From positions 1,237,925-1,301,924 of the forward strand of contig OX638322.1 in the NCBI GenBank assembly GCA_951812575.1: a stretch of 64,000 nucleotides of DNA, written 5' to 3'. Source of the DNA: Candidatus Binatia bacterium (lineage in GTDB: Bacteria; Desulfobacterota; Binatia; Bin18). Positions 5,623-59,311 of this stretch are shown here, one piece after another. Position numbers and translations under genes: made by a program. Numbering within the stretch: the first letter of the stretch is position 1; each line of letters begins with the position of its first letter. A model generated the notes under the pieces. It saw nothing but the letters and a program-made list of their open reading frames with translations, was not told the DNA's origin and did not search any database.

Positions 5623-5895
5623 TCTCTCCGATACAACGGCAGACGCTCTCCCTCCCCCCGGCGCTGGCAGGCGCCGTGTCGCTCTCCCTCCCTCGGATCA
5701 CACGCCCTGGCAGCGTCCCCCCCCTCTCCTCGCTTCCGTGCACTTGGATCGGTGCACAATCTCCCTAGAGGTTGATGCTGTCCTGGTCGAGAGAAACGGA
5801 AACGTCCGGGCATGGGCTGGTCGGGTGGCGCAGCTCGCTCCACGGGGTTGCTATTCGGCGCGCTGAGCTTATATCTATCGTTTTTGGAGTGTACA

Positions 5896-28224: not shown

Positions 28225-29139
28225 ATGGCGGCAAAAATCACTCCACGGCTGATTGAGTTGACGTATGAGGCCGCCCTAAAATCTTACTGGCGCAAAAGTG
28301 CTCTCCGAAAGTTTCTTCGCGCATCTCATATTTCTGAGACCTTCTTGGGCTCCTGGACTGGGGACGAGAGTAAACGTGAATTCTTAGATCGCGCTTTTGA
28401 GGAACTTCAGGAATCTGACAGGGGTAAAGCTGTAATTTTTCAAATGGCTCGAAGCCTCTCCGAGCAGACAACCTTTCCAGACCTTCGTAATTGGGAAGAC
28501 TCAGAACAAAAAGTCCAAGAGGCCCACGGAGCCGTTCAGGAGCTAAAGATATATCTTAAGCAACAGGATGAAGAAATTCGTAGTGAGAGAGAACAAGAAG
28601 AAGCTAAAAAAAGGGCGCGCGAAGAAAAGGCTCGTATACAACGATCCTTGACGGATCGAGCGTCTTTGCAACAACGTCTCGACGCTCTTCACTCTCAAGT
28701 TGGTACCCAAGTTGGTGGATATAAATTTGAGAATTGGTTCTATGATTTTTTAGATTTTTTCGATATCGACAATCGGCGTCCATACAAGACGAATGGAAGG
28801 CAAATTGATGGCTCCCTGACTTATGATGGGACAACCTACCTAGTTGAGCTCAAGTTCACATCTAATCAAGCGAAGCCCGCAGACATAGATTCTCTACGAG
28901 CAAAAGTTGAGGACAAAGCTGATAATACGATGGGGATCTTGGTATCCATATCGGGGTTCTCTAGTGTAGCGATTGACGGAGCTTCAGGACGACGCGGAGT
29001 ACTTCTCCTTTTCGATGCCCAACATATTTACTTATCTTTGTCAGGATCTCTAGGATTCGGTGATGTCATTTCTCGTATTAGAAGGCATGCTGCTCAAACC
29101 GGGAAAGCCTATCTTGAGGTGAGTAAATTCGGCGGATGA
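28225..29139 (+). CDS. Mrr-like PD-(D/E)xK restriction-endonuclease-fold protein with helical/coiled-coil N-terminal domain
   Basis: The C-terminal GRQIDGSLTYDGTTYLVELKFTS...MGILVSISGFSSVA fits the D...E.K Mrr_cat pattern. N-terminal ~190 aa are charged helices (EEIRSEREQEEAKKRAREEKARIQR). The region is AT-richer than its flanks. Confidence 0.55.
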   Translation: MAAKITPRLIELTYEAALKSYWRKSALRKFLRASHISETFLGSWTGDESKREFLDRAFEELQESDRGKAVIFQMARSLSEQTTFPDLRNWEDSEQKVQEAHGAVQELKIYLKQQDEEIRSEREQEEAKKRAREEKARIQRSLTDRASLQQRLDALHSQVGTQVGGYKFENWFYDFLDFFDIDNRRPYKTNGRQIDGSLTYDGTTYLVELKFTSNQAKPADIDSLRAKVEDKADNTMGILVSISGFSSVAIDGASGRRGVLLLFDAQHIYLSLSGSLGFGDVISRIRRHAAQTGKAYLEVSKFGG

Positions 29140-29179
29140 GTCGCATAGTAAGCCTTGCATATCATTCCACGAGGGTATT

Positions 29180-29371
29180 ATGAGAACGAGTGTCGAGATC
29201 GACGATAAACTGATGTCATGCGCTCTTCGTGCTAGCGGCTGTCGTACGAAACGGGCGGCGATTGAAGCCGGCTTGCGCCTGTTGGTTCAGTTCCACAGTC
29301 AGAAAAAACTCCGTACTCTCAAAGGGAAGATCACTTGGGAGGGTGATCTCGATGAGATGAGAAAGGGCTGA
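29180..29371 (+). CDS. VapB-type (DUF2191-like) antitoxin, orphan
   Basis: MRTSVEIDDKLMSCALRASGCRTKRAAIEAGLRLLV resembles the VapB at 46877 (MKTTLDIHDELLARAKRHA...). No PIN gene follows. Confidence 0.6.
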   Translation: MRTSVEIDDKLMSCALRASGCRTKRAAIEAGLRLLVQFHSQKKLRTLKGKITWEGDLDEMRKG

Positions 29372-29422
29372 CGTAGTTCGGAGGTGCCTGGGACTCCTCT
29401 TTTCCCCTGCTCTTCGTCGAGT

Positions 29423-29451
29423 TTGACACGTGTCACGTGACGGATTACTCT
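29423..29451 (+). promoter_or_regulatory. Candidate higBA promoter/operator (TTGACA, 12-bp perfect palindrome, TACTCT)
   Basis: TTGACA at 29423-29428, a 17-nt spacer, then TACTCT at 29446-29451. The perfect palindrome TGACACGTGTCA at 29424-29435 overlaps the -35. The higB GTG lies only 7 nt after the -10. Confidence 0.35.
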
Positions 29452-29458
29452 CGGTGAA

Positions 29459-29740
29459 GTGATCCAAACATTTGCTGATAGAAACACCGCAGAGTTGTAT
29501 AAAAGAGGAAAAGCAAAACGTTTCCCTTCGGAAATATGGAGACAGGCACGGCGACGATTGGAGTATATCGATTTGGCGACTCGCTTAGAAGATTTGCAGG
29601 TCCCTCCAAGTAATCGTTTACATAAACTGAGTCGAGACCGAGAAGGGCAGTATGCTATCTCGGTGAACACCCAATGGCGGATATGCTTTCGTTTTGTGGA
29701 TGGCGACGCATACGATGTCGAAGTAACGGATTATCACTGA
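29459..29740 (+). CDS. higB: HigB-type (RelE/ParE superfamily) toxin
   Basis: MIQTFADRNTAELY...VPPSNRLHKLSRDREGQYAISVNTQWRICFRF, the typical plasmid-maintenance-killer HigB pattern. Confidence 0.85.
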   Translation: MIQTFADRNTAELYKRGKAKRFPSEIWRQARRRLEYIDLATRLEDLQVPPSNRLHKLSRDREGQYAISVNTQWRICFRFVDGDAYDVEVTDYH

Positions 29741-29753
29741 GACGAGGTATCGG

Positions 29754-30068
29754 ATGAGTATTCCCAACAATAGAGCAAGACAGGTCCGTCCGACCCATCC
29801 AGGGGAAATGTTGCGGGAAGATTTCTTACCGGACTATGGGCTGACCGTGTCGAATTTTGCCCAGGCCCTTGGAGTGTCGCGCCAGACGGTGAATGAGTTG
29901 CTGCGAGAACGACGAGCCGTGAGCCCGGAGATGGCGCTACGGCTCTCTCGACTCTTTGGCAATACCGCTGAGTTTTGGCTAAACGCTCAGCAGGCGGTTG
30001 ATCTGTGGGATGGGGCCAGAGATATGAAAAAGCAACTCGCTCGGATTTCGCCCTTGAAAGCAGCGTAA
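29754..30068 (+). CDS. higA: HigA-type XRE-HTH antitoxin
   Basis: HPGEMLREDFL...LTVSNFAQALGVSRQTVNELLRERRAVSPEMALRLSRLFG.TAEFWLN.Q. Confidence 0.85.
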   Translation: MSIPNNRARQVRPTHPGEMLREDFLPDYGLTVSNFAQALGVSRQTVNELLRERRAVSPEMALRLSRLFGNTAEFWLNAQQAVDLWDGARDMKKQLARISPLKAA

Positions 30069-34852: not shown

Positions 34853-35200
34853 TTAGCCAGACGGACGAGAGTGGCGATAGCCGTGTGTAGGATTGGAACC
34901 GGCATTGAGACAGCCTTCCAATCTTTCGTAATCGCCCAGGTGAGCCCGCATCAGACTTTTCCACAGTCTGCCATGATTCGGCACGGAGAAATGCAGGAGC
35001 TCATGGACGATGACATAGTCCCACAGTTCGTCGTCAAGATCGAGCAACTCGCGGTTGAAGTTCAGATGGCCGTTCGTTGAGCAAGACGCCCACTTGTTGC
35101 GCATCGGACGAATGCCCAGCCAGACGATCTTCACGTCCAACTTCTCAGCCCAGGAATGGACGCGTTGCTTGAACTCCCGTTTGTGGTCGGTCGCCGGCAT
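34853..35200 (-). CDS. Short DUF45/YgjP-like (M48-type) zinc metallopeptidase, R-M-linked
   Basis: RNKWASCSTNGHLNFN..L......DYVIVHELLHF.VPNH (HExxH). Its start lies 3 nt after the hsdR stop. Only the C-terminal half of the usual ~230-aa protein is present. Confidence 0.65.
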   Translation of the reverse strand: MPATDHKREFKQRVHSWAEKLDVKIVWLGIRPMRNKWASCSTNGHLNFNRELLDLDDELWDYVIVHELLHFSVPNHGRLWKSLMRAHLGDYERLEGCLNAGSNPTHGYRHSRPSG

Positions 35201-35203
35201 AGA

Positions 35204-38107
35204 TTAATCTTGTCCGCCCCGCTCCAGCAACGTGAACAGCTCATCGACCATCGCCGTCACCCGCTCAAGCTCCTCTGTCTCCGCGAGAATGGCAAAGGTG
35301 ACCTCCTGGCGCAGTTCGCGGAGCGCACTCTCGCTTTGTTTCCAATTCGGAAAGTCAGAGAAGGCTTGACGAATGGTGCGGCTGACCGCCTCCGCATTGT
35401 CGATCCCGGCATCCGACAGACTCCGATACACGAAATACGTCAGCCCATCAAAGGACTTCTCCGTCTGTTCCTTTTTGCGCGCTTCGTTTTTGTCAACTTC
35501 CTTGAGGAGAGCTTCCAGGGCCTCGGCAGTGCTGGCCTGGCGGCTTTCAAAACTTTCCTGTACGGCCCGGGCGCGCTCGGCCATGGCGATCAGATACGGA
35601 TCGTCGCTGCCTTCCTCCGCCACCTTCTCAATGCTTTTGATCAAGTTGATGACCTGGGTTCCGTCGCTGCCTTGTCGCTTCTTGATGAGCTCAACGGTGT
35701 CCGCATTGATTGCGATGAGTCCTTCGAGCGATTCCACGCCATAGGAACTCACCTGCTCACGGACCAACAGCGCCGTTTTCCTTTGAAACTCCCGGTCGGC
35801 CTGAATCCGTCGTGTGTAAGCCTTGCGCACAACCTGGAAGATTGCGCTTAATGTTCCATACGTTTCCATGAACGGCCGCAGGAAGGCATCCGGCGAGATG
35901 ATCTCATACAGCATCTCGATCTCTTTGTATTCCCGAAAGAACTCTTTCCGCCGCTCAGGGGCGCGGAAGTGCTCAATCAGGATATCGACATCTTGGTCGT
36001 TAAAGGCGTGCTCGATAAGGCCGAGGTATTCCGGCGCTTTCTGCTGCATCTTGTTTTTGAAGAGGACCTTCAGGAGTGTGAGGTCTTTGACGATGGCGTT
36101 GATCTCATCGCTGTCGAAGGCGAGCGCCTTTTCGAGTTTGTCGAAGATACCGACGAAATCGAGGACAAAGCCGTGAGGTTTCACCATCCCCCGCGCCTCG
36201 TTTTCGTAGGGGCGGTTCACCCGGGCGATGGCCTGGAGCAGGGTGTGGTCGCGCATCGGCTTATCGAGATACATGGCGTAGAGCAGCGGCGCGTCAAAGC
36301 CGGTCAGCAGTTTCTCGGTCACGATGAGGATTTTCGGGTTCTGGTCGCGCTTGCCGAAGCGCTTGCGAATTTGCCGCTCCTGCTTCGGGTCAAGGTGAAA
36401 TTTCTTCAGCAACGCGGAGTCGTTGTTGTTCTTGGTGTAAACGACCTCGGAATACTCGGGCGGGAGGAATTCGTCGAGGGCGTGTTTGTAGTAGGCGCAG
36501 GCTTCGCGGTCGACGCCGACGAGGAAAGCCTTGTAACCGAGCGGTTCGACGTTCTCCACGTAGTGTGTGGCCACATACTGCGCCACCTGCGTGATCCGCT
36601 CCTGACTCTTGAGGAAGTTCTTCAAATGAACCGCACGCTCCAGAATCTTGTTGAGTTCTTCAATATCCGCCACCCCCTCGGCCTCGGCCAGGGAGAGAAA
36701 CTCCGCGTCCAGGGTCTCGTGCGGGACGAGCATCTTGTTGGGGGCGAGTTGGTAATAGAGCGGGAGCGTGGTGCCGTCCTCAATGCTGTCGGCAATGGAA
36801 TACTTGTGCAGATAGCCTTGGTCATCCTCGCAGCCGAAGGTCTTGAAGGTGCCCTTGCCATAGGCGGTCTTGTCCACTGGGGTGCCGGTGAAACCGAGAT
36901 AGGTGGCGTTTGGCAGACCGGCCATGAGAAAGTTGCCGAGATCGCCGCCGGTGGTGCGGTGGGCTTCGTCGATGAGGACGTAGATGTTCGAGCGGGTATT
37001 GAGGTCCGCCGGCATGCCGCGGAACTTGTGGATCATCGTGACGATGATGCCCCGATAGTCGTCCTTCAGTAACTGGTTGAGCCGCTCTATGCTGTCGGCG
37101 TGTTCCAGGTTGCCCAAGCCGAGTGCGGCCAGGTTCTTGAGCATCTGGTCTTCCAATTCGTTGCGGTCAATCATGAGGAGGACGGTCGGCTTGTCGGCCT
37201 CGGGCGCGCGGAAAAGTCGCTCTGCCGCTTTGATCATGGTGAAGGTCTTGCCGCTGCCCTGGGTGTGCCAAACGAGGCCACGGGTCCGGTCGGGGGTTAG
37301 GGCGCGTCCAACCGTGGCGTCCACCGCGCCGGTTTGGTGCTGGCGCAGAATGTATTTGTTCAGCTCCTCATCCTTCTCGGCAAAGATGATGTAGTCCTTC
37401 AGGAAGGCGAGCACCTGGGGGATGGCGCAGAAGCTCTTCACCTTGGCCTCCAGCCTGCCGGCCTCGGCATCCTTCCAGTTGAAGATGTTGCGCCGCACCG
37501 TGTTCCAGGTCGCGCCGTAGGAAAAGCCGATGGCGTCGGTGGCGATAAAGAGTTGCTGGGAAATGAACAGCTCGGGGGTCTCGCGGTGGTAACGGCGGAT
37601 TTGATCCACGCCGAGGGCTATCGCCTCGTCTTTGGTGGCGTTCTTACACTCGATGACCAGCACGGGAATGCCGTTGATAAGAAAGACGACATCCTCCCGC
37701 GTACCATAATGGCCGTTGTGACAAGCCCACTCTTCGGTGACTTCGTACACGTTGCGCGTCGGGTCGTTGTAATCGATCAGGATCAGGTCGCGCTCGCGGT
37801 TCTCCTCGTGGTCAAGGAACTTGCCACGGTTGCGCAGGTGCTCGACGAAGTCCCGGTTGCCGTAGATATCGGTGTGGAAATGTCGTAACTGGCCGAGCAA
37901 GGTGTCCTCGGCCTCGGTATAGCGCGGGTTGAATTCCCGTACTTTGGCGTCAAGCAAATCGTCGAAGAAAAGCGACAAGGGAGGGGAGGCAGGAGTCCTT
38001 CCTCTCCTTTGCTCGGCTTGCTCGCGGGGCACAAACGTCCAACCAATAGCCTCGGCGTATGTGAGGATGCGGGCTTGGACGGTTTTGTGTTCGGTAGGGG
38101 TGGGCAT
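35204..38107 (-). CDS. hsdR: Type I restriction enzyme R subunit
   Basis: N-terminal PD-(D/E)xK (DVVFLINGIPVLVIECK). Helicase motifs HTQGSGKTFTM and VLIDEAHRT. 967 aa. Confidence 0.95.
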   Translation of the reverse strand: MPTPTEHKTVQARILTYAEAIGWTFVPREQAEQRRGRTPASPPLSLFFDDLLDAKVREFNPRYTEAEDTLLGQLRHFHTDIYGNRDFVEHLRNRGKFLDHEENRERDLILIDYNDPTRNVYEVTEEWACHNGHYGTREDVVFLINGIPVLVIECKNATKDEAIALGVDQIRRYHRETPELFISQQLFIATDAIGFSYGATWNTVRRNIFNWKDAEAGRLEAKVKSFCAIPQVLAFLKDYIIFAEKDEELNKYILRQHQTGAVDATVGRALTPDRTRGLVWHTQGSGKTFTMIKAAERLFRAPEADKPTVLLMIDRNELEDQMLKNLAALGLGNLEHADSIERLNQLLKDDYRGIIVTMIHKFRGMPADLNTRSNIYVLIDEAHRTTGGDLGNFLMAGLPNATYLGFTGTPVDKTAYGKGTFKTFGCEDDQGYLHKYSIADSIEDGTTLPLYYQLAPNKMLVPHETLDAEFLSLAEAEGVADIEELNKILERAVHLKNFLKSQERITQVAQYVATHYVENVEPLGYKAFLVGVDREACAYYKHALDEFLPPEYSEVVYTKNNNDSALLKKFHLDPKQERQIRKRFGKRDQNPKILIVTEKLLTGFDAPLLYAMYLDKPMRDHTLLQAIARVNRPYENEARGMVKPHGFVLDFVGIFDKLEKALAFDSDEINAIVKDLTLLKVLFKNKMQQKAPEYLGLIEHAFNDQDVDILIEHFRAPERRKEFFREYKEIEMLYEIISPDAFLRPFMETYGTLSAIFQVVRKAYTRRIQADREFQRKTALLVREQVSSYGVESLEGLIAINADTVELIKKRQGSDGTQVINLIKSIEKVAEEGSDDPYLIAMAERARAVQESFESRQASTAEALEALLKEVDKNEARKKEQTEKSFDGLTYFVYRSLSDAGIDNAEAVSRTIRQAFSDFPNWKQSESALRELRQEVTFAILAETEELERVTAMVDELFTLLERGGQD

Positions 38108-38119
38108 CTCTTGTCTTTC

Positions 38120-39265
38120 CTACCTTTTCTTGGCGTTCCCAGGACGCTTTGCGGGTAATCCAATGGCCACGCCCAGTTCTTTCGCCGTTGGCAGTTTGCC
38201 TTTCAGTTCCTTCGGCAAGGTTGGCTTCAGCTGATATTCCGCCACTCCGATCGGGTTAACTTTCGACTTCAGCGCGAATTCGACTTCGACATCATCCTTT
38301 TCCGCGCAGAGGATAATCCCGATGGACGGGTTGTCATCAGTCGCCCGTTCCTTTTCATTCAGCACATTCAGATAGAAATCCATCTTGCCGGCGAACTCCG
38401 GCTTAAACTCGCCGATCTTCAGTTCAATGGCGACGAGGCATTTGAGGAAGCGATGATAGAAGAGCAGATCAATGAAGTATTCCTTCTTCCCGGCCACCAC
38501 TCGATGTTGCCTGCCGATGAAACAGAAACCGTAGCCGAGTTCCAGGATGAAATCCTTCAACTGCTCAATCAGCTTGTCTTCCAGCTCCCGTTCCTTAATC
38601 TCCCGACCGATGCCAAGAAATTCCAGGTTGTAGGAACTCTTCAGCGCTTCCTCCGCCTGCTCGGCGAGGTACTCCGGCAGAGCGAGAGGGAAATTGTGTA
38701 CTTTTCCTTCAGCTAGGCTGCGCCCGTAGGCATCCGCTTTGATCTGGTTCAGCAGAACAGCTCTCGTCCAACCAAACTGAGCAGTTGCTCGGAGGTAGTA
38801 AAGTCGTTCTCGTGGCGCCTTCACTTTCTTGGTGATCTCAACAAGGTGCCCCCAAGGCACTGGCGACAGAACTTCTTGAACAAGCTGTTCAAGAATTGCC
38901 GATTCTCCCACGGCCGCTTCCGGGGAATCCAATCGCTGCGACAGAACTTCTTGAACAAGCTGTTCAAGAATTGCCGGGGAACTGTATTCCGAGTAAAACT
39001 GCCGCATAAGCCAGAGGTTATTGGCAGAAACCCCCTTCATCCCTGGAAACTCTGCCCTCAAATCCAAGGACAATTGCTCCACCACCGACTTCCCCCAACC
39101 CAACTCTCCCTGCTTCTCTACGATTCCGCGTCCGATGTCCCAGTAGAGCAGGATCAGGTCGCGGTTCACCGAGCGCGCCGCCGAGATCCGCGCCGACTGA
39201 ATCCGCGATTTTACTTCGCCCAGCCAAGCGGTGTAGTCAGGAGATGGCGTCAGTTTGTCAGGCAT
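38120..39265 (-). CDS. DUF1016/YhcG-like PD-(D/E)xK nuclease-fold protein
   Basis: AARSVNRDLILLYWDIGRGIVEKQ...WG..VVEQLS.DL...FPG.KG.S..NL..MR.FY and a C-terminal IDLLFYHR.L.C.VAIELK. Confidence 0.8.
   Translation of the reverse strand: MPDKLTPSPDYTAWLGEVKSRIQSARISAARSVNRDLILLYWDIGRGIVEKQGELGWGKSVVEQLSLDLRAEFPGMKGVSANNLWLMRQFYSEYSSPAILEQLVQEVLSQRLDSPEAAVGESAILEQLVQEVLSPVPWGHLVEITKKVKAPRERLYYLRATAQFGWTRAVLLNQIKADAYGRSLAEGKVHNFPLALPEYLAEQAEEALKSSYNLEFLGIGREIKERELEDKLIEQLKDFILELGYGFCFIGRQHRVVAGKKEYFIDLLFYHRFLKCLVAIELKIGEFKPEFAGKMDFYLNVLNEKERATDDNPSIGIILCAEKDDVEVEFALKSKVNPIGVAEYQLKPTLPKELKGKLPTAKELGVAIGLPAKRPGNAKKR
38863..38975. repeat. In-frame 75-bp tandem duplication inside the DUF1016 gene
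   Basis: The 38-nt perfect repeat GCGACAGAACTTCTTGAACAAGCTGTTCAAGAATTGCC occurs at 38863-38900 and 38938-38975. In the protein this gives AILEQLVQEVLS twice. Confidence 0.85.
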
Positions 39266-39341
39266 AGTCTTTCACGAAAACAAGCTGCGATGGCGTTCTG
39301 TGGTTGAGGCAAATTCATTCCACTTTGTTGCTGTAATTGAT

Positions 39342-39612
39342 CAGGGTGTTCGACGAATTCCCGGTTGGTGTGGAAATGTCGTAACTGGCCGAGCAAGGTG
39401 TCCTCGGCCTCGGTATAGCGCGGGTTGAATTCCCGCACTTTGGCGTCAAGCAGGTCGTCGAAGAAAAGCGACAAGGGAGGGGAGGGAGGGGAGGCAGGAG
39501 TACCCCTTCTCCGTTGCTCGGCCTGCTCGTGAGGTACAAATGTCCACCCGATGGCCTGGGCGTATGTGAGGATGCGGGCCTGGACGGTTTTGTGCTCGGA
39601 GGGAAGAGGCAT
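39342..39612 (-). pseudogene. hsdR: Remnant of an hsdR 5-prime end (first ~90 codons)
   Basis: MPLPSEHKTVQARILTYAQAIGWTFVPHEQAEQRR...LSLFFDDLLDAKVREFNPRYTEAEDTLLGQLRHFHT parallels the N-terminus of the intact HsdR. It includes a 69-nt run identical to 37871-37939. Homology stops near 39342. Confidence 0.85.
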
Positions 39613-39646
39613 GAGATCTAGTTTGCTTCAGAACCCAAATGGTGAG

Positions 39647-41908
39647 TCATTTCTCTACATCCTCCTCGCGTGCGGGTTCGACAGGAATGACTTGTTCATC
39701 GATTCTATTTGGAACGTCATTTGTGATAATGTTTCCAATGATTCCCAGGACAAGTACCAAAATAATTGAGGACCAAAGCCACGCCCGAAATCGACTTATC
39801 TGCTGAAACGGCCAGAGCTGGTTAAACGCCTCATTTCGTTTCACGCATGCCTCAATAATTAAGTGGAGGAGGACGAAGACGAAAACGCCAATAATGATTT
39901 GAAAGGGAATGGTGCCAATTAATTTTGTCAATAGCTGGACTTTTCCAGCCAGCCAGCCTCCAAATACCGAGATCAAGAGGACACCAGCGAAAAGGAAACT
40001 ATATTTGACGAAAGCACCCTTTTTCGCCTGCTCGATCTTGCTGTCATTGAGTCGATTTGAAATCTCTTCGATCTTCTGATCTTGCTCTTGGAGTTTGGAG
40101 TTCGCCAACGCAATCTCTGTCTTCTCAGCAGCCACACGCGCTTGCAGTTTCTTGATCTCCTTTTCCTTTCCAGCGGACTCAGACATCAAAGTTAGAATCT
40201 GGGAATCCCGAGCTTTGACCTCCGTGTCCAAATTCTCTGCGCGATTCTTTTCTTTCTCGGCTTGAGCCTGTATTTCCTCTACGAGCGCGTCCCGAATCAG
40301 TTTGGCTTCCACGTCTTTGTTCTGTTCGGAACCCAATCGAGCTCGCAGTTCTTCGTTAAGCATGACCTGGCTAATAGATTCCTCAGAGATATGCTCATTT
40401 CCCTCAAACTGGCCAATTCTTTTCAAGATTCGAAGACTTATGCGTTCGGCTTCCGGATCGAAATCCTGAAATAAGAATGGCAGCCGCATGCTGCCGAGGA
40501 TCGCTTCTTCAAACTCTGGTGTCCGGGGAACCCAGAATTGAAGAAGCTGAATTAGTGATGTGGGATGAACGCAGATCGGAACAGAGGCACCCTGGCTTTT
40601 ACGCTTGCGCTCATCGAATCCGATAAATCGAAAATCTAACGTAAGGATCCAGTCTTGGGCGTCGACTGGTGACTCGACGTAGCTCGGCCGATTGTCATTA
40701 ACAAGGTGCCAAAGAACCATGTCGTGCTGAACCATTTCAAATGACTTAGCACGAAGTCCCCTGTCTTTTTCAGATTCTAAAACAGTGTGAATATCATCAA
40801 CTACGTCCTGGCGAACTACGTAATCGTCGAGCTCTTCATTGTATAGCTTGACACCTTTGTCTCGTGCTAAAAGGACAAAGTTATCCAGGTAAGGGTCGAA
40901 CCAATCACCAACTGACAATTCCTCTGACCTGTCAGCCTGCTCATTGAGAAATCTCGCGAGGAGCCCCGAAAATCTGACGTGTGATGCAGCCCCGGCAAAG
41001 TTGGTTCCGGCAGGAAGTCCAGCAAGGCGGTATTTAGCTGATGAGATGGAACGCTTTGCCTCGTCAATCGTTCGCGGCGTCACATAAAGATCAATTTTCA
41101 GATTCGAGTTTAACGAATCAATCAGGTCTTTCAGCTCGGTTGCTGCCGAATTAGAAGGATTATCATGCAGATTCAAAATTGAAAACAGGAAGTTTGTATC
41201 AACAAACACACGGAATCTGATCCTCTTGCCCGCACTGGATCTCAACTTTGTAATCACGCTGTCTGGTAAACCGCTCGCTGCGACACAAAATGTAGCGTGA
41301 AGCGTCCGGCTGATGTATGACCTCACTGCTTCGTTCTTCGGATCAAGAAAGCGCGAGATCAGTTCCAATAACTGGGTTTCAATATTCGAGTCGAATTCCT
41401 CCTGAAACTCGCGAACGAGTTTCTTGTTAACCGTCATTTCTTCACCGGCGATTAGCTTGTAGGCGTTCGCTCCTATTTCGCGAATGAGCGGCGCAAGAAA
41501 GACGGATTCAAATTTGCTCCACGCCTCCTCAGGTGAGAGATCATTACAAAGCTCTTTAACTAGCTCGAAAAAAAATTCTTTTGCGACCCGGCCCGAGTTT
41601 TCTGCAGACGCGATTTCTTCCTCAAAAACAGACTGTTTGCTATCAGGAATGCGAAACTCGTCGTTTGAGAGTCGAATCAGAAAATCCTGTGATTCGAGCA
41701 CTTTTATTACAGACTCGACCTTTGCTACGCTCACGGATAGGGCGAATGCCGATTCCAAGATTGTTCGAATCTTGTCGACTGATGGATTGTTGTCGGCAAG
41801 CCAAACAGAAGCAAGAATCAGACGCTGCATGGCTTTATCCCACCAACCATCTCTATGCAACTCAACGTGGTGGACGATAGCAGCCAACAGTTTGGAAGTG
41901 GAATTCAT
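39647..41908 (-). CDS. PIN-like domain protein with coiled coil and three C-terminal transmembrane helices (unknown function, R-M embedded)
   Basis: RFRVFVDTNFLFSIL, YVTPRTIDEAKR, VQHDMVLWH (PIN-like acidic pattern). Coiled coil at ~590-660. TM helices FLFAGVLLISVFGGWLAG, IPFQIIIGVFVFVLLHLII and LWSSIILVLVLGIIGNII. 13-nt gap to the hsdS stop. Confidence 0.55.
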   Translation of the reverse strand: MNSTSKLLAAIVHHVELHRDGWWDKAMQRLILASVWLADNNPSVDKIRTILESAFALSVSVAKVESVIKVLESQDFLIRLSNDEFRIPDSKQSVFEEEIASAENSGRVAKEFFFELVKELCNDLSPEEAWSKFESVFLAPLIREIGANAYKLIAGEEMTVNKKLVREFQEEFDSNIETQLLELISRFLDPKNEAVRSYISRTLHATFCVAASGLPDSVITKLRSSAGKRIRFRVFVDTNFLFSILNLHDNPSNSAATELKDLIDSLNSNLKIDLYVTPRTIDEAKRSISSAKYRLAGLPAGTNFAGAASHVRFSGLLARFLNEQADRSEELSVGDWFDPYLDNFVLLARDKGVKLYNEELDDYVVRQDVVDDIHTVLESEKDRGLRAKSFEMVQHDMVLWHLVNDNRPSYVESPVDAQDWILTLDFRFIGFDERKRKSQGASVPICVHPTSLIQLLQFWVPRTPEFEEAILGSMRLPFLFQDFDPEAERISLRILKRIGQFEGNEHISEESISQVMLNEELRARLGSEQNKDVEAKLIRDALVEEIQAQAEKEKNRAENLDTEVKARDSQILTLMSESAGKEKEIKKLQARVAAEKTEIALANSKLQEQDQKIEEISNRLNDSKIEQAKKGAFVKYSFLFAGVLLISVFGGWLAGKVQLLTKLIGTIPFQIIIGVFVFVLLHLIIEACVKRNEAFNQLWPFQQISRFRAWLWSSIILVLVLGIIGNIITNDVPNRIDEQVIPVEPAREEDVEK

Positions 41909-41921
41909 GGGTGACGCAATC

Positions 41922-43235
41922 CTAATCCGTTGGCGTGTTAACCCTAGTCTTCGCGGTCATCAGTTCGTGAAGAAGGGTGCGGAAGAGAGATTGAAGAGCA
42001 TCTCTCTTCTCTTGGTGTTTCTGTATCTTCTCTTCCACGCCGTGGATGGCGTTCGCGATCTCGACCTGCTCGTCGTAGGTGGGACTTGGAATCTTTAGTG
42101 CGGAAATCTCGTTCTTGTTGTAGTTGGCCTGATTGACGGCTCTACGAGCGAGCTTTACGAATACGCTTTCCTCCCTGTAGTGATTCATCAAGTGTTTAAG
42201 AAAGTAGTTGTGGGACTTTTTTTCACCAGTGCAGATCCGCAGGATAAACGAGGCAAAGATATACTTCTCATTTTGCGTATGAAAGATGGTGCTTTTCCCG
42301 ATTAGCGGAGGGCTATTGCGCCAGTTGAAGAGGACGTCGCCATCGTTCAGCGTGAGCCGGGTGGCGGTCTTTTCTGGGACTTCAATCCGGCGAATTTTCC
42401 CGTAAAGCAGGTTTCCTTGTTTATCGATATCGGCAGTACTAACGATCTTCACACCATCCGCAGGTGGTGTTTTTGGGATCGCTTGAGAGACACCATAGTC
42501 TATGAACTCAACTGTCTCAATTAGCGGGACCACCTCCCAACTTTCGGGCATGGGACCGATTTCAGTTTGTTTTCGGGGTTCGTTGCGAAGGCCTTCGGTG
42601 AAGAGCTTGTGCATGAGAGTCTTTTTCAGCTCGGTGGTGGCCTGAATGATCCGCTCCTGCGCTTCGATCGCCCGCTGCACCGTCGAAAGGATGTGCGCGA
42701 TCTTCTTCTGCTCGGGGAGCGGAGGTAGCGGAACCGTGATGCGGTAGAAACTCTTTGGATCCACACGTTGACGACTCGGTGTGGAACCAGAGACCAGCGT
42801 TTTCGCGATGGGCATAACGTGGTCGGACCATTCAAGGAAGTAAAGGAAGTCAGGATCGACTCGCTCATCAGGAAGAATGGGAATCCACTCCGTTGATCCA
42901 ATTTGACGAAATTCAGATGACTCGGCAACGCGCCACACTTTTTCCACTCTCGGATTCAGTTTGCCGAAAAGGACTGTCTTTGGTTCCAGAAGTAGCTTGG
43001 AACTCTCTATTGCATCGCCCGCAGTGAGACTTGGGGTCTGACCGCGCTGATAGTCGGGGATGCTGTAATACTCAAACGTCTCGTCGGCGAAGTTCTTTGG
43101 AGTCAGTGTTGGCGCTTTCCGAATGTTAATATCACCAAGAGCGATGATATCCCAATCATCGGGAAGATTTTCGAGAAGTATGCTCATACCCCAATCCTCT
43201 CCGGTCCAATCGGGAGGAAGTTCTTTGTACAACAC
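41922..43235 (-). CDS. hsdS: Type I restriction enzyme specificity subunit
   Basis: Two target-recognition halves separated by the conserved helices PLPPLPEQKKIAHILSTVQRAIEAQERII and IPSPTYDEQVEIANAIHGVEEKIQ. Confidence 0.9.
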   Translation of the reverse strand: MLYKELPPDWTGEDWGMSILLENLPDDWDIIALGDINIRKAPTLTPKNFADETFEYYSIPDYQRGQTPSLTAGDAIESSKLLLEPKTVLFGKLNPRVEKVWRVAESSEFRQIGSTEWIPILPDERVDPDFLYFLEWSDHVMPIAKTLVSGSTPSRQRVDPKSFYRITVPLPPLPEQKKIAHILSTVQRAIEAQERIIQATTELKKTLMHKLFTEGLRNEPRKQTEIGPMPESWEVVPLIETVEFIDYGVSQAIPKTPPADGVKIVSTADIDKQGNLLYGKIRRIEVPEKTATRLTLNDGDVLFNWRNSPPLIGKSTIFHTQNEKYIFASFILRICTGEKKSHNYFLKHLMNHYREESVFVKLARRAVNQANYNKNEISALKIPSPTYDEQVEIANAIHGVEEKIQKHQEKRDALQSLFRTLLHELMTAKTRVNTPTD

Positions 43236-43318
43236 GCCCGTTGCGATGTCGGCCCTATTGTTCCACCCAATCGTTCCCCTCCGAGCGTCGCCCTGTGCCG
43301 CCGACGATGGAGCTATGC

Positions 43319-43996
43319 TCAGCGATTCAAGTTCTCCAATTTACTTACCCATTCGTTGAAGAGCGGGCATGACTCGCGCATTCTATCAATTCCGATTTCC
43401 TGAGCGATGCCGATACCAGTCACGGTCTTCTTGAATCGGTCAGACAAGCCTTCCAACTGCTTGGATGGAGCAGTCTGGGGATTGTCGTTGATCTTCTCCG
43501 GTTCGTCGTCGTATCCAGAAAGAATTTTCTGCACCTCTTCTGGCCGAACATTCAATTTTCGGGCCAGAATTTCGGCATCACTGAAGAGCAGTGCCTCAAA
43601 CTCGAACATCGAAACATAGGGTATGAATCGCCGCTGTGCATATTGATCGCTGAAGAGTTCGTTTACCCGCTTCCGGGTCGCTTCGTTCATCACTCGCGCC
43701 TTCGATGTGTGGCGTCTTTTACGTTTTGACTCCTCGTAGCCGGGCCAATCACCCTTAATACCGAAGTAATCGACAAGCAACGTCAGCCAGGTTTCGTTTC
43801 TTTGCTTGAGATGGCGTTCAATGTCGTTTCTGGCCCGCGAAAAACGAACGTCACCGCCCTTCTGGCCGGGCTTTGTCAGGATAATCGGGGTGATGTAGAC
43901 CTCTGTCCGCGCGAGATAGGGACCTAAAATATCTTGGACAAAGATTCTCTCGGTCGGGCCTTCGACCAGCGCTACCACCTCGGCGGTCCTACTCAT
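43319..43996 (-). CDS. DUF4276-like (Toprim-like) protein
   Basis: MSRTAEVVALVEGPTERIFV (conserved E), LTLLVDYFG, FIPYVSMFEFEALLFSD. Its ATG overlaps the ATPase stop (TATGAGTAG). The ORF-track start 44056 is rejected. Confidence 0.6.
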   Translation of the reverse strand: MSRTAEVVALVEGPTERIFVQDILGPYLARTEVYITPIILTKPGQKGGDVRFSRARNDIERHLKQRNETWLTLLVDYFGIKGDWPGYEESKRKRRHTSKARVMNEATRKRVNELFSDQYAQRRFIPYVSMFEFEALLFSDAEILARKLNVRPEEVQKILSGYDDEPEKINDNPQTAPSKQLEGLSDRFKKTVTGIGIAQEIGIDRMRESCPLFNEWVSKLENLNR

Positions 43997-45095
43997 AAAC
44001 CGGCCCCCCCGAGATGACGTTTTTACTCCACAGTTCGCCCACGGAATAACTTTCAAGCCATGCTCGATAGTCCTCTTCGTTCAGGCGTTCAAACGTGGAC
44101 GCGCCCCTTTTCCGGTTGACCACAACGACATCCTCAACCGAGAAGTTGTCGATCAGTGCCGGTGACTGTGTCGCCACGATGAGCTGGGTGCGCTTCGAGG
44201 CGTTTTGAATCAGCTCTGCCAAAATGCTGATTGCGGCAGGATGGAGTCCCAACTCCGGTTCGTCAATGATTAAGGAAGAGGGAAGGTCGGGTTGCAATAA
44301 GGCGGTTGCCAGACAGATAAACCGGATACTGCCGTCGGAGAAATGATACGGCTGCATCGGGTAATCCGAGCCCTTGGCGTGCCAGGAAAGCGCCACCTTC
44401 CTTTTCGGTCCGAAGCTTTCTACGTCAAGGAGAAAATCATCGAGACAGGGAATCACCAATTTACAGGACTGGAGAATTTCTTGGTACGTTTCCTCGTCCC
44501 TTTTTTTGAGTCTCCGCAAGAATGGCGCAATATTCGAGGCATCGAAACGCAGAGTCTTGTTGTCTTGCACGATCTCTGCATGCCGCATTGCCGCCGTCTC
44601 GCTCGTGTCGTGAAAATGATAGATTTTCCATGAAGCAATGGACTCATATACTGGCCTGCTGTATTGGGCGTCATGGGCCTTTTCTTTTGCCTCTTTCACA
44701 AGCAAGGGTTGTCCATCCGGACTGTCTCCTAGCTCCCACCATTTCGTCATCCCGTGCCCATAGTAACGAGCTTCGTCTGTCAGCGCACAACCTTCGGATG
44801 GGCCGGGTTTGATAGTAAAACGGTATCCGCGTGACCCGAAGCGCGTTTCAAACTTGAGGCGTTTTGTGACCCTTCGTCCGTTAAAGAGGAGGTCGCTGAT
44901 TCCCCCGCTGTCTCGAACGTAGTCATTCAGATTTCCGTTGATGAGTGCTTGCAGCAGGCGGAAAAAGGCAATGAGGTTGCTTTTTCCCGTGCCATTGGCA
45001 CCGATTAACACATTCAGGCTCTTGATCTCAAAATTTTCCAGCTCACGGATAGATTTGAATCCTCGTATCGTCAGTCTGTCTAAAGGGTCTCCCAT
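43989..45095 (-). CDS. ABC/SMC-like AAA ATPase partnered with DUF4276
   Basis: Start taken at MGDPLDRLTIRGFKSI. Walker A LIGANGTGKSN, signature-like FSDGSIRF, Walker B LIIDEPELGLHP. The ORF-track N-terminal extension overlaps hsdM. Confidence 0.8.
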   Translation of the reverse strand: MGDPLDRLTIRGFKSIRELENFEIKSLNVLIGANGTGKSNLIAFFRLLQALINGNLNDYVRDSGGISDLLFNGRRVTKRLKFETRFGSRGYRFTIKPGPSEGCALTDEARYYGHGMTKWWELGDSPDGQPLLVKEAKEKAHDAQYSRPVYESIASWKIYHFHDTSETAAMRHAEIVQDNKTLRFDASNIAPFLRRLKKRDEETYQEILQSCKLVIPCLDDFLLDVESFGPKRKVALSWHAKGSDYPMQPYHFSDGSIRFICLATALLQPDLPSSLIIDEPELGLHPAAISILAELIQNASKRTQLIVATQSPALIDNFSVEDVVVVNRKRGASTFERLNEEDYRAWLESYSVGELWSKNVISGGPVYE

Positions 45096-45118
45096 ATCAA
45101 AGTCCCCCGTTTGTTTGC

Positions 45119-46666
45119 TTATACCCCAATCTTCCCCAGAATCTGCCGCAATACCGTGTCCGTTTCCCGCGCCTCGGCTTCGATAACGTCGAGTTCGGCC
45201 ACAATCTCCGCAAGCGGCCGGTAGGTCTCCGCGTCGTCGGTGTGAATGTAGCGACTGGGGGAGATGTTGTAGTCGTTTTTCTTCAGCTCCGCGTGATCGA
45301 CAATGCGGCTGAGTTTTTCCTCTTCCTGCCACCCTATCAGGGTGTCGGCGATACGGGTGATACCCTCGGGTGGGATGAAGTTCTTGGGGTCGCCCTTCTC
45401 GAAGACCCGGCTGGCATTAACGAGAAAGACTTTGCCCTGCCGGGCTTTTGGCTTGGCCTTGTTGAGGAACAGGACGATACCTGGGGCTGTGGTGTTGTAG
45501 AAGAGGTTTTCGGGCAGATAGAGGACGCTCTCGATGAGGTCCTGCTCAACAAACCACTGACGGACGGTTTTTTCCTTGTTGGTGCCGGCATTGCCCGAGC
45601 CTCGGGAGGCGGCACCGGTGTCGAGGACGACGGCAGCGCGACCTTCGGCATTGAGGCTGGCGTGCATGTGCTGGACCCAGCCCCAGTCGGCGGAAGATTT
45701 TCCGGGGAAACCGGGCGGGAAGCGGTCGAATTCGTCATTGTCGTAGTCGGCCTCAGTGTACCAGTCCTGATTCCACATGGGATTGGCGACGACGCGATCG
45801 AAAGTACGCAGCTTGCCGTTTTTTTCGGCGCGGAACTTGGGGTTCTTGAAGGTGTCGCCGATCTCGATCTGGCCCTCCATGTCGTGGATGATCATATTCA
45901 TGTTGGCCATGGCCCAGGTCTCGGGGATGTATTCCTGGCCGAACAGTTTGAGAGGCGGGTATTGCGTCTTGTCGGCGGCTGTCATTTTCGCTTCCATGGC
46001 GAGCTCGCACTTGATGAGAAGGCCGCCGGAGCCGCAGGTGGGGTCGTAGATTTCCATACCCGGATCAGGCACGAGGACGCGGGCGATGATCTCGCCGACC
46101 TCGCCGGGGGTGTAGAACTCGCCGGCACTCTGACCGCTGCCCTCGGCGAACTTGCGGATAAGGTATTCGTAGCTCTTGCCGATGATGTCGGCCTCAACGT
46201 CCTCAAGCCCGAGGCGCTTGGTGCTGATGGCCTCAATGAGGTTGGAGAGGCGGTCGTCGTCGAGGTCGCGCTGGCCGTGGGTGGTCGCGTTGAAGTCCAC
46301 GCGGTCGATGATGCCTTGCAGGGGCGGGTTTTCCCTGGCGATGGCCCGCATGTGGCTGGTGACGCCTTCGCCGATCTTGTCCGAGAGCTTGCGAATGACG
46401 GACCAGACCGGCTGTTCGGGATCGTCCGGCATGAGGGGGAGGTAGAAGCGGACAAGCTTGTGGTCGGCTCCGGCGAGCTGGAAGGCTTTCTTGCGCGAGC
46501 CGACCTTGGCGTCGATGCGGTTCAGTTCATCATCAAAGACATCGCACAGGCGTTTGGTGAAAATAAGGGGCAGGATGTAGTCCTTGTATTTCGGTGCGTC
46601 CTTGGCCCCACGGATGGAGCAGGCGGCGTCCCATATCCAGGATTCCAAGGATTTGAAGTGGGACAA
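45119..46666 (-). CDS. hsdM: Type I restriction enzyme N6-adenine methyltransferase subunit
   Basis: HsdM_N-like N-terminus (LWDAACSIRG..D...YKDYILPLIF.KRL), AdoMet motif YDPTCGSGGLL, catalytic ANPMWNQ. Confidence 0.95.
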   Translation of the reverse strand: MSHFKSLESWIWDAACSIRGAKDAPKYKDYILPLIFTKRLCDVFDDELNRIDAKVGSRKKAFQLAGADHKLVRFYLPLMPDDPEQPVWSVIRKLSDKIGEGVTSHMRAIARENPPLQGIIDRVDFNATTHGQRDLDDDRLSNLIEAISTKRLGLEDVEADIIGKSYEYLIRKFAEGSGQSAGEFYTPGEVGEIIARVLVPDPGMEIYDPTCGSGGLLIKCELAMEAKMTAADKTQYPPLKLFGQEYIPETWAMANMNMIIHDMEGQIEIGDTFKNPKFRAEKNGKLRTFDRVVANPMWNQDWYTEADYDNDEFDRFPPGFPGKSSADWGWVQHMHASLNAEGRAAVVLDTGAASRGSGNAGTNKEKTVRQWFVEQDLIESVLYLPENLFYNTTAPGIVLFLNKAKPKARQGKVFLVNASRVFEKGDPKNFIPPEGITRIADTLIGWQEEEKLSRIVDHAELKKNDYNISPSRYIHTDDAETYRPLAEIVAELDVIEAEARETDTVLRQILGKIGV

Positions 46667-46876: not shown

Positions 46877-47143
46877 ATGGGTAATATGGGAGAGATGAAA
46901 ACGACCCTTGATATCCACGACGAACTTCTGGCACGGGCGAAACGTCATGCCAAGAAGACGGGCCGCCCCTTGCGCGCCGTGGTTGAGGACGGGCTCCGAC
47001 AGGTGCTTGCTGCGTCTCCCTCCCGGAACCGCTATCGGCTGCCCGATTTGAGCACCGGCCATGCCGGCGCGGAGGACCCTCTTGAGGTCTATTCGTGGCA
47101 GGACCTGCGCGGGTTGATCTACGGAGAGACTGAAACACGATGA
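46877..47143 (+). CDS. vapB: VapB-type antitoxin
   Basis: MKTTLDIHDELLARAKRHAKKTGRPLRAVVEDGLRQVL. Its stop overlaps the vapC ATG (ATGA). The true start may be ATG 46895. Confidence 0.75.
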   Translation: MGNMGEMKTTLDIHDELLARAKRHAKKTGRPLRAVVEDGLRQVLAASPSRNRYRLPDLSTGHAGAEDPLEVYSWQDLRGLIYGETETR

Positions 47144-47574
47144 TTGCTGTCGATACGAACCTGCTCGTCTACGCCCACCGCAAGGAATCCCGCGTGCATG
47201 AAGCCGCCTTTGCGATTGTGCGGACGCTTGCCGAGGGGAACCAGGTGTGGGCGATTCCCTGGCCCTGCTGCTACGAATTCCTGAGTGTCGTAACAAACCC
47301 TCGAATTTGGAAAGACGCGGCAACATCGCCGGAGCGTGCATGGCGGCAACTCGAAGCCTGGACCACCTCGCCAAATAATCGTCTGCTCGGCGAGACCGAC
47401 GACTTTCTCAAGGTATTGAGCGATCTCGTGCAGCGGCCGCGGGTGCGCGGTGCGGTCGTCCACGATGCCCGGATCGCCGCGCTCTGCCTGGCCCACGGTA
47501 TTGAAGCGCTCCTCACCCGTGACCGTGATTTCTCGCTATTTCCAGAACTGCGAACACGAGATCCGTTCGGTTAG
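47140..47574 (+). CDS. vapC: VapC PIN-domain toxin
   Basis: MIAVDTNLLVYAH....HE.A ... HDARIAALCLAHG...LLTRDRDF. Confidence 0.85.
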   Translation: MIAVDTNLLVYAHRKESRVHEAAFAIVRTLAEGNQVWAIPWPCCYEFLSVVTNPRIWKDAATSPERAWRQLEAWTTSPNNRLLGETDDFLKVLSDLVQRPRVRGAVVHDARIAALCLAHGIEALLTRDRDFSLFPELRTRDPFG

Positions 47575-57592: not shown

Positions 57593-59311
57593 TCAGAAGA
57601 GAAAATAGCGTTGGGCGAGGGGCAGGACCTGGGCCGGTTCACAGGTGAGTATTTCACCGTCGGCTTTCACGACGTAGGTCTCCGGGTTGACCTCTATGTC
57701 CGGCAGGGCCTGATTGTGGACCAGGTCTTTTTTTCCGACACTCCGACAGCCCTGGACCGGGACGAGCGGCTTCTGGAGCCGTAAGCGCTGGCCCAGGCCG
57801 TTTTCGTAGGCGGCGCGCGAGACAAAACTCACGGACAGCGAGGCCGGGGCCCGCCCCAGGTGGCCAAACATCGGCCGTCCGAACACCGGTTGGGGGGTCG
57901 GAATGGAGGCGTTGGGATCACCCATCGCCGCCCAGGCAATGAAGCCGCCCTTGAGAATCAGTTCCGGCTTGACGCCAAAAAACTTCGGCTCCCACACCAC
58001 CAAGTCGGCCAGCTTACCCACCTCAATCGATCCCACCTGCTGGGCGATACCGTGGGTCAGGGCCGGGTTGATGGTGTATTTGGCAATATAACGCTTGACC
58101 CGAAAATTATCGTTTTCCCCTGTCTCTTCCGGTAAGCGACCGCGTTGGACTCGCATCTTATGGGCGGTCTGCCAGGTGCGGAGAATCACTTCCCCAACGC
58201 GGCCCATGGCCTGCGAGTCCGACGCCATCATACTGAAGGCACCCAGATCGTGCAGCACGTCCTCGGCCGCAATCGTTTCCGGTCGAATACGCGATTCGGC
58301 AAAGGCCACGTCTTCGGGAACACCGGGGTCCAGATGGTGGCAGACCATCAGCATGTCGAGGTGTTCGTCTATGGTGTTGACAGTGAAGGGCCGGGTCGGG
58401 TTGGTTGACGACGGCAGGACGTTCGGGAACCCGCACACCTTGATGATATCCGGCGCATGTCCCCCGCCTGCTCCCTCGGTATGGTAGGTGTGGATCGCGC
58501 GGCCCTTAAACGCCGCAATCGTATCCTCGACATAGCCGGTTTCGTTTAAGGTATCGGTGTGGATGGCGACCTGGACGTCATAGTCGTCGGCCACGGAGAG
58601 CGCACAATCAATCGCGGCAGGCGTCGAGCCCCAGTCTTCGTGGAGTTTGAGCCCCATGGCACCGGCTTCGAGCTGCTCGCGTAGGGCCTCGGGACGAGAG
58701 GCATTGCCCTTGCCCAGAAAACCCAGATTCATGGGAAAGTCCTCGATCGATTCGAGCATACGGGCGATGTTCCACGGCCCCGGTGTACAGGTGGTCGCGT
58801 TGGTGCCGGTGGCCGGGCCAGTCCCACCGCCAAACATCGTGGTGATGCCCGACGCCAGCGCTTCGGTGATCTGTTGGGGACAGATAAAATGAATATGCGC
58901 GTCAATACCACCCGCAGTCAGAATCTTCCCTTCTCCGGCCAGAATTTCCGTCCCAGGGCCAATGACCAGTTCGGGCGAGACGCCCTCCATCAGGAGGGGG
59001 TTACCGGCTTTACCGATGCCGCAAATTCGGCCGTCTTTCACCCCGACATCGGCTTTCACAATGCCCCAGTGGTCAATCACGGTCGCATTGGTAATCACCA
59101 GATCCGGCGCGCCTTGAACCGAGGTTTGGACGGGTGACTGGCCCATACCGTCGCGAATGACTTTGCCGCCACCGAACTTTACCTCATCCCCGAGTTGCGT
59201 ATGGTCCTGCTCGACCTCAATCACCAGGTCGGTATCGGCCAGCCGGACCCGGTCGCCAACGGTCGGCCCGAACATTTCGGCATACCGACGGTGTTCCATC
59301 GTTCGACTCAT
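57593..59311 (-). CDS. ureC: Urease alpha subunit
   Basis: [52 protein letters not shown] and MVCHHL. 572 aa, i.e. alpha only. Confidence 0.95.

Follow-up and report, generated by a model that had tools for sequence, protein, structure and literature searches.

Three candidate defence cassettes in a type I restriction-modification operon of a Candidatus Binatia bacterium

The DNA analysed here is a 64,000-nucleotide (nt) window from the Candidatus Binatia bacterium assembly GCA_951812575.1 (contig OX638322.1, positions 1,237,925 to 1,301,924, forward strand). Its main subject is a string of nine co-directional, tightly packed open reading frames (ORFs) that runs on the minus strand from 46666 to 34853. 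Very probably, this locus is a type I restriction-modification (R-M) operon that has taken up three extra candidate defence cassettes by recombination. Cassette 1, between hsdM and hsdS, is an ATPase-DUF4276 pair of the HEC-01 type. Cassette 2, downstream of hsdS, is a single gene for an uncharacterised protein of 753 amino acids (aa), for which we will use the term p753. Cassette 3, upstream of hsdR, encodes a DUF1016/YhcG protein. The locus is a clear example of type I R-M operons serving other immune modules as a landing pad.

Defence genes embedded in type I R-M systems have already been described under the heading of "guilt-by-embedding" (Payne et al. 2024; bioRxiv 10.1101/2024.01.29.577857), and the embedded genes were found to be co-oriented in 96.7% of cases (bioRxiv 10.1101/2024.01.29.577857). 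The kind of arrangement is known (PrrC, RloA/B, HEC and PDC candidates), and two of the three cassettes are already catalogued candidates. As judged from the sequences compared below, the p753 family is a recurrent, uncatalogued R-M-embedded gene and is new here.

The restriction-modification scaffold and its variable cargo

HsdM (45119-46666, on the minus strand like the whole operon; 515 aa, TTG start) combines an N6-adenine methyltransferase domain with the HsdM N-terminal domain (N6_Mtase 3.9e-88, HsdM_N 5e-19, PADLOC MTase_I 1e-163). In HsdS (41922-43235), Methylase_S matches in two stretches (9e-20), as for two target-recognition domains, and the PADLOC Specificity_I match (3e-53) spans residues 24-426. 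HsdR (35204-38107) is one intact ORF of 967 aa with the Pfam domains HSDR_N, SWI2_SNF2, ResIII and a T1R_D3-like domain, and its TIGR00348 match (1.9e-144) exceeds the 284.55-bit cut-off. By its domain content this is an intact type I R-M gene set.

More than 100 environmental or metagenomic loci, given L numbers below, were compared overall. The HsdR query had 580+ metagenomic relatives, and the best 80 of these (68-87% identity) were analysed. The order hsdM ... hsdS ... hsdR is kept among the relatives, and a short DUF45 gene (~100-115 aa in this R-M family) follows hsdR in 68 of the 68 relatives with at least 400 nt of downstream sequence. The copy in the window (34853-35200, DUF45/YgjP-like) encodes 115 aa that match positions 113-205 of the 207-position profile (2.3e-24) and contain a HELLH motif of the HExxH metallopeptidase type. 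Because it trails hsdR in all of these relatives, the DUF45 gene is taken as part of the core in its native short form; the alternative of a truncated pseudogene was rejected on the same observation. The initial annotation had counted five passenger genes, DUF45 among them. This count was not borne out, as DUF45 is core, which leaves four passenger genes in three cassettes beside a pseudogene scar of hsdR. Minimal loci with hsdM, hsdS, hsdR and DUF45 were also found (L055, L060, L096). On these comparisons, the fixed core of this very widespread R-M family is hsdM-hsdS-hsdR together with the short DUF45/YgjP gene, which is a new invariant partner of this family. In L103 and L104 (19612-20364), which belong to a more distant type I family with p753 upstream of hsdM, hsdR is followed by a full-length DUF45/YgjP gene (238 aa). 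The ~100-aa form appears to be specific to the R-M family of the window.

The composition of the locus is mosaic. In the initial annotation, hsdM and hsdR had been described as GC-rich and the ATPase, DUF4276, hsdS and 753-aa genes as AT-richer, and this description is upheld by the GC content at third codon positions (GC3) and by a codon-adaptation index. The reference consisted of 26 genes elsewhere in the window (GC3 0.691, standard deviation 0.046). Among the scaffold genes, hsdM (GC3 0.80, z = +2.4) and hsdR (0.77, z = +1.8) lie above this reference and DUF45 lies at it (0.69, z = 0.0). The ATPase (0.60, z = -2.1), DUF4276 (0.61, z = -1.9), hsdS (0.58-0.59, z = -2.3), p753 (0.50, z = -4.2) and DUF1016 (0.64, z = -1.2) genes lie below it. 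The pattern of the codon index, which is of the codon adaptation type, matches that of GC3.

Comparison with the closest scaffold relative separates scaffold from cargo. In L102, hsdM is 95%, hsdR 91% and DUF45 91% identical at the aa level, with 91-93% identity at the nt level, and the order is M-S-p753-small nucleotidyltransferase-type genes-R-DUF45. HEC-01 and DUF1016 are both missing from this locus, and its p753 is merely 58% identical to that of the window. Another relative, L006 (hsdM 82%), has p753 and a distant AAA_21 ATPase-DUF4276 pair (ATPase ~23% identical) upstream of hsdM, in the order p753-HEC-01-like pair-hsdM-RhuM-Fic-hsdS-ABC-3C genes-hsdR. Because L102 and L006 carry different cargo, it is the cargo that varies rather than the scaffold. 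The suggestion of the initial annotation that cargo was swapped into an R-M scaffold is supported from two sides: L102 combines a near-identical scaffold with other cargo, and L105-L108 combine a like HEC-01 pair with a scaffold of 73% nt identity.

The gaps between the scaffold genes are variable in the family as a whole. Of 44 loci, 36 have more than 300 nt between hsdS and hsdR, with up to 6.7 kb, and of 34 loci, 13 have more than 300 nt between hsdM and hsdS. In the M-S and S-R gaps of the 80 relatives, 88 proteins of 60 families are encoded. A Pfam scan of 81 gap proteins identified AAA_21, AAA_15, OLD-type Toprim with UvrD (Gabija-like) and SIR2_2 with HerA/DUF87, and further DUF4062, Fic, RhuM, HipA, GmrSD, TIR, SMODS and DUF1016. 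From the diversity of these 60 families and the variable gap lengths it follows that, as far as the compared sequences go, the M/S and S/R junctions are general hot spots for embedded defence or toxin modules. The view that R-M operons are defence-gene hot spots, from which the initial annotation had started, thus agrees with the gap families and with the published embedding survey.

In gene order from hsdM to DUF45, the inter-gene gaps are 23, -8, 83, 13, 34, -16, 12 and 3 nt. It was confirmed that all nine genes lie on the minus strand, from 46666 to 34853, as were the 8-nt overlap of the ATPase and DUF4276 genes and the largest gap of 83 nt; another overlap, in which the hsdR remnant ORF and DUF1016 share 16 nt, had been missed. 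The hsdS ORF opens at a GTG (43235) and has an alternative ATG start at 43187. The ATG is probably the real start, as judged from the junction analysis described below, and the largest gap then becomes 131 nt. A promoter-like site is present upstream of hsdM, and terminator-like sites show no excess over shuffled sequence (16 found, 15.5 expected). The spacing and the lack of a terminator-like excess are compatible with a single transcript. No tRNA genes were found in a tRNA scan of the window, and so it contains no tRNA-type integration site.

Cassettes 1 and 3 and the duplicated ends of hsdM and hsdR

Cassette 1 consists of HEC-01A, a 368-aa ATPase of the ABC (AAA_21) type (43989-45095; AAA_21 5.5e-37, PADLOC HEC-01A 5.2e-134), and HEC-01B, a DUF4276 protein of 225 aa (43319-43996; DUF4276 Pfam 3.7e-51, HEC-01B 4.8e-72). 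As in HEC-01, the two genes stand side by side and overlap, match both models and divide the roles of ABC ATPase and Toprim protein between them. DUF4276 has been placed in the Toprim superfamily (PMC12065111; bioRxiv 10.1101/2024.01.29.577857), which makes the pair a split ATPase-nuclease design of the OLD/PARIS/AbiL type. Among the relatives of HEC-01 are mad3/mad4 of MADS, AbiL and RloA/RloB, AriA/AriB of PARIS, OLD and Gabija; the matches of the pair to AriA, to AbiLi and to mad3 are much weaker (1e-34 to 1e-23) than those to HEC-01. HEC-01 takes its definition from Hma systems, where it is cargo, and occurs elsewhere too (bioRxiv 10.1101/2024.01.29.577857); the pair of the window lies instead in a type I system, between its hsdM and hsdS. 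This M-HEC-01-S arrangement recurs in L105-L108, with 84-86% aa identity for the ATPase and 77-82% for DUF4276.

The same position between methyltransferase and specificity genes is held by mad3 and mad4 of the MADS system (mad1-8). The order of an HsdM-like gene, ATPase, DUF4276 and an HsdS-like gene mirrors mad2-mad3-mad4-mad5, and mad3 and mad4 are needed there for defence. It is conceivable, if improbable, that the extra genes are working subunits of one enlarged MADS-like machine, in which the ATPase/Toprim pair, and perhaps p753, would act together with HsdM, HsdS and HsdR. The recurrence of the M-HEC-01-S arrangement at 84-86% identity and the weak MADS2/3/5 matches at the locus are in line with this proposal, and the inactivity of HEC-01 alone in E. 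coli would fit a need for partners. On the other hand, MAD6, MAD7 and MAD8 are mandatory in the published MADS model, and no protein of the locus has a PADLOC match to mad6, mad7 or mad8. The MADS2, MADS3 and MADS5 NCBIfam scores are 41.9, 90.3 and 32.2 bits, far below the cut-offs of 720, 420 and 400, and, as a further difference from MADS, the window has a canonical HsdR. Membership in MADS was rejected because of the absent mad6-8 and the low scores. Also speaking against the enlarged machine are the L102 scaffold, which does without HEC-01 and DUF1016, the minimal M-S-R-DUF45 loci, and the definition of HEC-01 from Hma systems together with its presence outside Hma.

Cassette 3 is the DUF1016/YhcG gene (38120-39265, 381 aa). 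Its product has the DUF1016_N domain (4e-39), the YhcG_C PD-(D/E)xK domain (2.9e-61) and a full-length match to PDC-S02 (2e-130), a PADLOC candidate that stems from embedded genes of BREX, DISARM and type I R-M systems. The gene of the window shares with PDC-S02 its location inside a type I R-M operon. Unlike PDC-S02 in general, the copies in the window and in L042 carry a 25-aa in-frame internal duplication and have flanking hsdR 5' repeats. In L042, too, the DUF1016 gene stands directly upstream of hsdR (84-91% aa identity), and it is also present in L071, L073, L092, L107 and L108. The 25-aa duplication lies in the DUF1016 N-domain and results from a direct repeat of 39 nt with two identical copies and a period of 75 nt (38863-38901 and 38938-38976), each copy of which contains the palindrome TTCTTGAACAAGCTGTTCAAGAA. 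Both copies of the palindrome-containing core motif are found at the same positions in the L042 gene.

Two of the three cassettes (1 and 3) are bounded by duplicated scaffold gene ends. For cassette 3, the duplicated sequence is the 5' end of hsdR. Upstream of DUF1016 lies an hsdR 5' remnant (39250-39612), a pseudogene scar with a 120-aa ORF whose first ~95 codons derive from hsdR and which lacks the HsdR catalytic region. The duplicated stretch is ~245 nt long, and its two copies (39367-39612 and 37871-38107) flank the cassette. The first half of the repeat (39367-39489 versus 37871-37993) is 97% identical and the second half (39483-39612 versus 37978-38107) is 83% identical.

Such remnants recur in the family. 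The first 300 nt of each relative's own hsdR were searched against its upstream DNA, with two internal 300-nt segments as controls. Remnants of the hsdR 5' end were found in 15 of 64 relatives, as against 0 of 64 for the control segments. In L042 and L108, the DUF1016 cassette is likewise preceded by a remnant of the hsdR start (37 nt and 51 nt, respectively). At sequence level, the recurrence points to homology-driven shuffling of cassettes. Two successive hsdR 5' remnants, each before a different passenger, are present in L042 (7111-10001) and in L047/L066 (6347-10001). These double remnants suggest a stepwise stacking of cassettes upstream of hsdR.

For cassette 1, the duplicated sequence is the 3' end of hsdM. 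The right-hand scar is a 21-nt relic of the hsdM 3' end at the hsdS start junction, GGAGAGGATTGGGGTATGAGC (43182-43202, minus strand), which is a direct repeat of the present hsdM end at 45113-45137. The relic is identical to the hsdM-end/hsdS-start junction of L042 and represents the typical hsdM-stop/hsdS-start overlap of the family. The overlap GGGGTATGA is common to many relatives, and the present hsdM terminates in the related GGGGAAGATTGGGGTATAA. On the other side, the HEC-01 block (43302-45203) is 85.7% identical to L105 at the nt level and reaches 85 nt into hsdM (45119-45203); the remaining hsdM has 73% nt identity to L105. In L105 itself, a BrnTA pair has been inserted since, and a ~100-nt hsdM 3' relic lies directly before the ATPase gene.

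The simplest model for these junctions is that cassettes travel with a piece of hsdM 3' or hsdR 5' sequence as a portable homology arm. Entry would occur by homologous or unequal recombination at the matching gene of a related locus, either by Campbell-type integration of a looped-out circle or by unequal crossover between alleles, and the same repeats would permit the cassettes to loop out again. The published survey of embedding in type I R-M, BREX, DISARM and Hma systems reports co-oriented foreign defence genes and diverse cargo, as seen here. It does not describe the route by which cargo enters, whereas cassettes 1 and 3 of the window are flanked by duplicated scaffold ends. As evidence of how cassettes enter, the duplications are new, and they offer a concrete and checkable mechanism for embedding and for the movement of cassettes between alleles.

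The p753 family

The gene of cassette 2 (39647-41908) encodes p753. At threshold the protein matches nothing in Pfam, PADLOC, NCBIfam or PHROG, and it is not among the candidate models of PADLOC-DB v2.0.0. The family is large. A word-indexed search gave more than 450 matches, and an exhaustive profile search gave 729 clusters at E <= 1e-30, 1227 at 1e-10 and 1608 at 1e-3. Nearly all members are 700-800 aa long, and the ~730-1600 clusters (at 50% identity) come from Proteobacteria, Nitrospirota, Bacteroidota, Chloroflexota, Acidobacteriota and Planctomycetota.

An AlphaFold2 model built with 60 homologues has a mean predicted local distance difference test score (pLDDT) of 77.9. At the N-terminus it contains a winged helix (residues ~25-88), which Foldseek matches to IclR, Fur, MarR and DtxR-type domains with a probability of ~1.0, followed by a helical region. 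A central alpha/beta domain (~230-460) has a beta-alpha-beta pattern and a pLDDT of 80-92. It is followed by a single helix of ~120 residues (531-654), taken as a long coiled coil, and by three transmembrane (TM) helices (~636-729) at the C-terminus.

The central domain carries the motifs FRVFVDTNFLFS, T..EA, HD..LWH and WILT.D.R. Four acidic residues, D237 (in FVDTNFLFS), E283, D396 and D425 (in WILTxD), are invariant in 60 close members and also in 17 homologues from six phyla down to 29% identity. This acidic D...E...D...D arrangement, with its VDTN and (L)T.D motifs, is that seen in the PIN-domain-like superfamily. Below threshold, residues 233-290 match Pfam PIN_3 (E = 0.074), and 10 of the 20 homologues scanned match PIN_12, again short of the cut-off (lowest E 0.1). 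A model of the domain alone has a pLDDT of 61. Its top Foldseek matches are VapC20, PAE2754, HARP, PAE0151 and Nmd4, none of them significant (best E 0.022, TM-score 0.2-0.4). The full model gave winged-helix matches only, and searches of the full and domain profiles against the sequences of the Protein Data Bank gave only coiled-coil noise. Taken together, the conserved residues and the model make p753 probably a PIN-like nuclease. The initial annotation had called it a PIN-TM protein; the TM part of this call corresponds to three helices in the model and the PIN part is plausible from the invariant acidic tetrad, with weak profile and fold matches.

The genomic context of p753 was compared in 24 informative loci, with flanks of 8-10 kb where the contig allows. 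In 15 of them p753 lies in or beside a type I R-M operon, usually in the order hsdM-hsdS-p753-(0-3 genes)-hsdR. Two further loci have it beside another methyltransferase and helicase system: a type III-like mod/res pair (N6_N4_Mtase ... ResIII) precedes it in L002, and an Hma-like set with a DUF1156 methylase, DUF499 and helicases precedes it in L015. In the remaining 7 of 24, no R-M-type system was found in the examined flanks. The slot between hsdS and hsdR is occupied by p753 in the window and in L001, L003, L004, L005, L007-L010, L102 and L111. The junctions can be very tight: in L003, p753 shares 4 nt with hsdS and another 4 nt with hsdR, and in L111 it shares 4 nt with hsdS and is separated from hsdR by 5 nt. 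Such coupling is what would be expected if p753 were a subunit of the enlarged machine considered above; the seven loci with no R-M gene in the examined flanks argue against this.

The position of p753 is that of PrrC in EcoprrI of E. coli CT196 (hsdM-hsdS-prrC-hsdR), where PrrC is co-directional and located between hsdS and hsdR (bioRxiv 10.1101/2024.01.29.577857). PrrC is a soluble protein in which an ABC-ATPase is fused to an anticodon nuclease, whereas p753 has no P-loop and has TM helices. A PrrC-type anticodon nuclease was rejected as an identity for p753, since neither an ATPase nor a PrrC match was found in Pfam, PADLOC or NCBIfam and only the position is in common. The literature describes VapC-type PIN toxins of small size within type I operons (PMC5499597), and also unrelated defence proteins with PIN domains (PMC13092281). 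Literature searches found no description of a protein with winged helix-turn-helix, PIN, coiled-coil and TM regions in R-M loci. As an unnamed family of stable architecture, p753 is a candidate for functional study with and without its R-M partner.

Proposed function and neighbouring genes

In the proposed mechanism, the whole string would be co-transcribed from a promoter upstream of hsdM, and the R-M enzyme would provide first-line, sequence-specific restriction. HEC-01 would combine an ATPase sensor with a Toprim nuclease, p753 would pair a DNA-binding head with a PIN-like nuclease tethered to the membrane, and DUF1016 would be a PD-(D/E)xK nuclease. The passengers may act as independent or back-up effectors of the abortive-infection type, possibly triggered when the R-M enzyme is inhibited. 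The analogy behind this role is with the response of PrrC, PARIS and Gabija to anti-restriction proteins (bioRxiv 10.1101/2024.01.29.577857). A more specific proposal, which we put forward tentatively and regard as possible rather than likely, is that p753 represents a new and widespread class of R-M-linked, membrane-anchored PIN-like effector or guard with a DNA-binding winged helix. It would be kept latent by the R-M complex or cooperate with it, and would serve as the second defence line should restriction fail or be inhibited, and the cassettes would be exchanged through the duplicated hsdM 3' and hsdR 5' homology arms.

Several observations weigh against this account of uptake and function. 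No junction scar was found around the p753 cassette. The unequal identity of the two hsdR repeat halves (97% versus 83%) is not explained by one simple event and requires an extra one, such as gene conversion, and the sequence alone fits integration of a circle, unequal crossover and illegitimate joining alike. The PIN assignment of p753, although plausible, is based on sub-threshold profile and fold matches, and a comparison of the p753 profile with the VapC protein of the window by hhalign gave nothing. Co-transcription is inferred solely from the spacing and the absence of a terminator-like excess. Finally, a HEC-01 representative gave no phage protection in E. coli (bioRxiv 10.1101/2024.01.29.577857).

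This last result, the single published test of HEC-01, would also suit a different explanation, in which the passengers are selfish addiction or toxin-like genes, or decaying hitch-hikers of a mobile R-M locus, with no benefit for defence. Their AT-richer, foreign composition fits this explanation, and the scars and the pseudogene remnant show recombinational turnover. Toxin-antitoxin modules (BrnTA, MNT/HEPN-like, HipA, Fic, VapBC) are also frequent as cargo or neighbours in the relatives. However, all four passenger ORFs are intact and have conserved catalytic-type residues, and their families are conserved at 70-90% identity in many environments. Moreover, the cargo of the relatives consists mostly of validated defence systems (Gabija-like, SIR2-HerA, GmrSD, CBASS parts), and 7 of 9 similarly embedded candidates have been validated as defences (bioRxiv 10.1101/2024.01.29.577857). 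Passengers of no defensive use are on this evidence quite unlikely, and a role of the cassettes as candidate defence modules is preferred.

Outside the operon, a vapB-vapC pair lies next to hsdM, as the initial annotation had noted, at 46877-47574 on the plus strand and divergent from hsdM. VapC matches PIN (4.6e-10), VapB matches VapB_antitoxin below the cut-off (2.8e-4), and the stop and start of the two genes overlap by 4 nt (47140-47143). A homologous vapBC pair (E 4e-6 and 3e-11) stands directly upstream of hsdM and co-directional with it in L008 (4870-5554), a Nitrospirales metagenome-assembled genome. The L008 operon also contains p753.

A second small foreign or defence islet is located ~5 kb from the R-M operon at 28225-30068. 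It contains a 304-aa Mrr_cat gene, which has a very low GC3 (0.40, z = -6.4), and after it an HTH_3 (Xre/HigA-like) gene. The first 6000 nt of the window (1-6000) have a GC content of 67-72%, compared with 58.6% for the whole window, and include a 1681-aa ORF (281-5326) with a GC3 of 0.92. At 58861-59159 on the plus strand, the Rfam small RNA family 5_ureB_sRNA is matched with 90 bits (E 4e-22), antisense within the urease alpha-subunit gene (57593-59311, minus strand).

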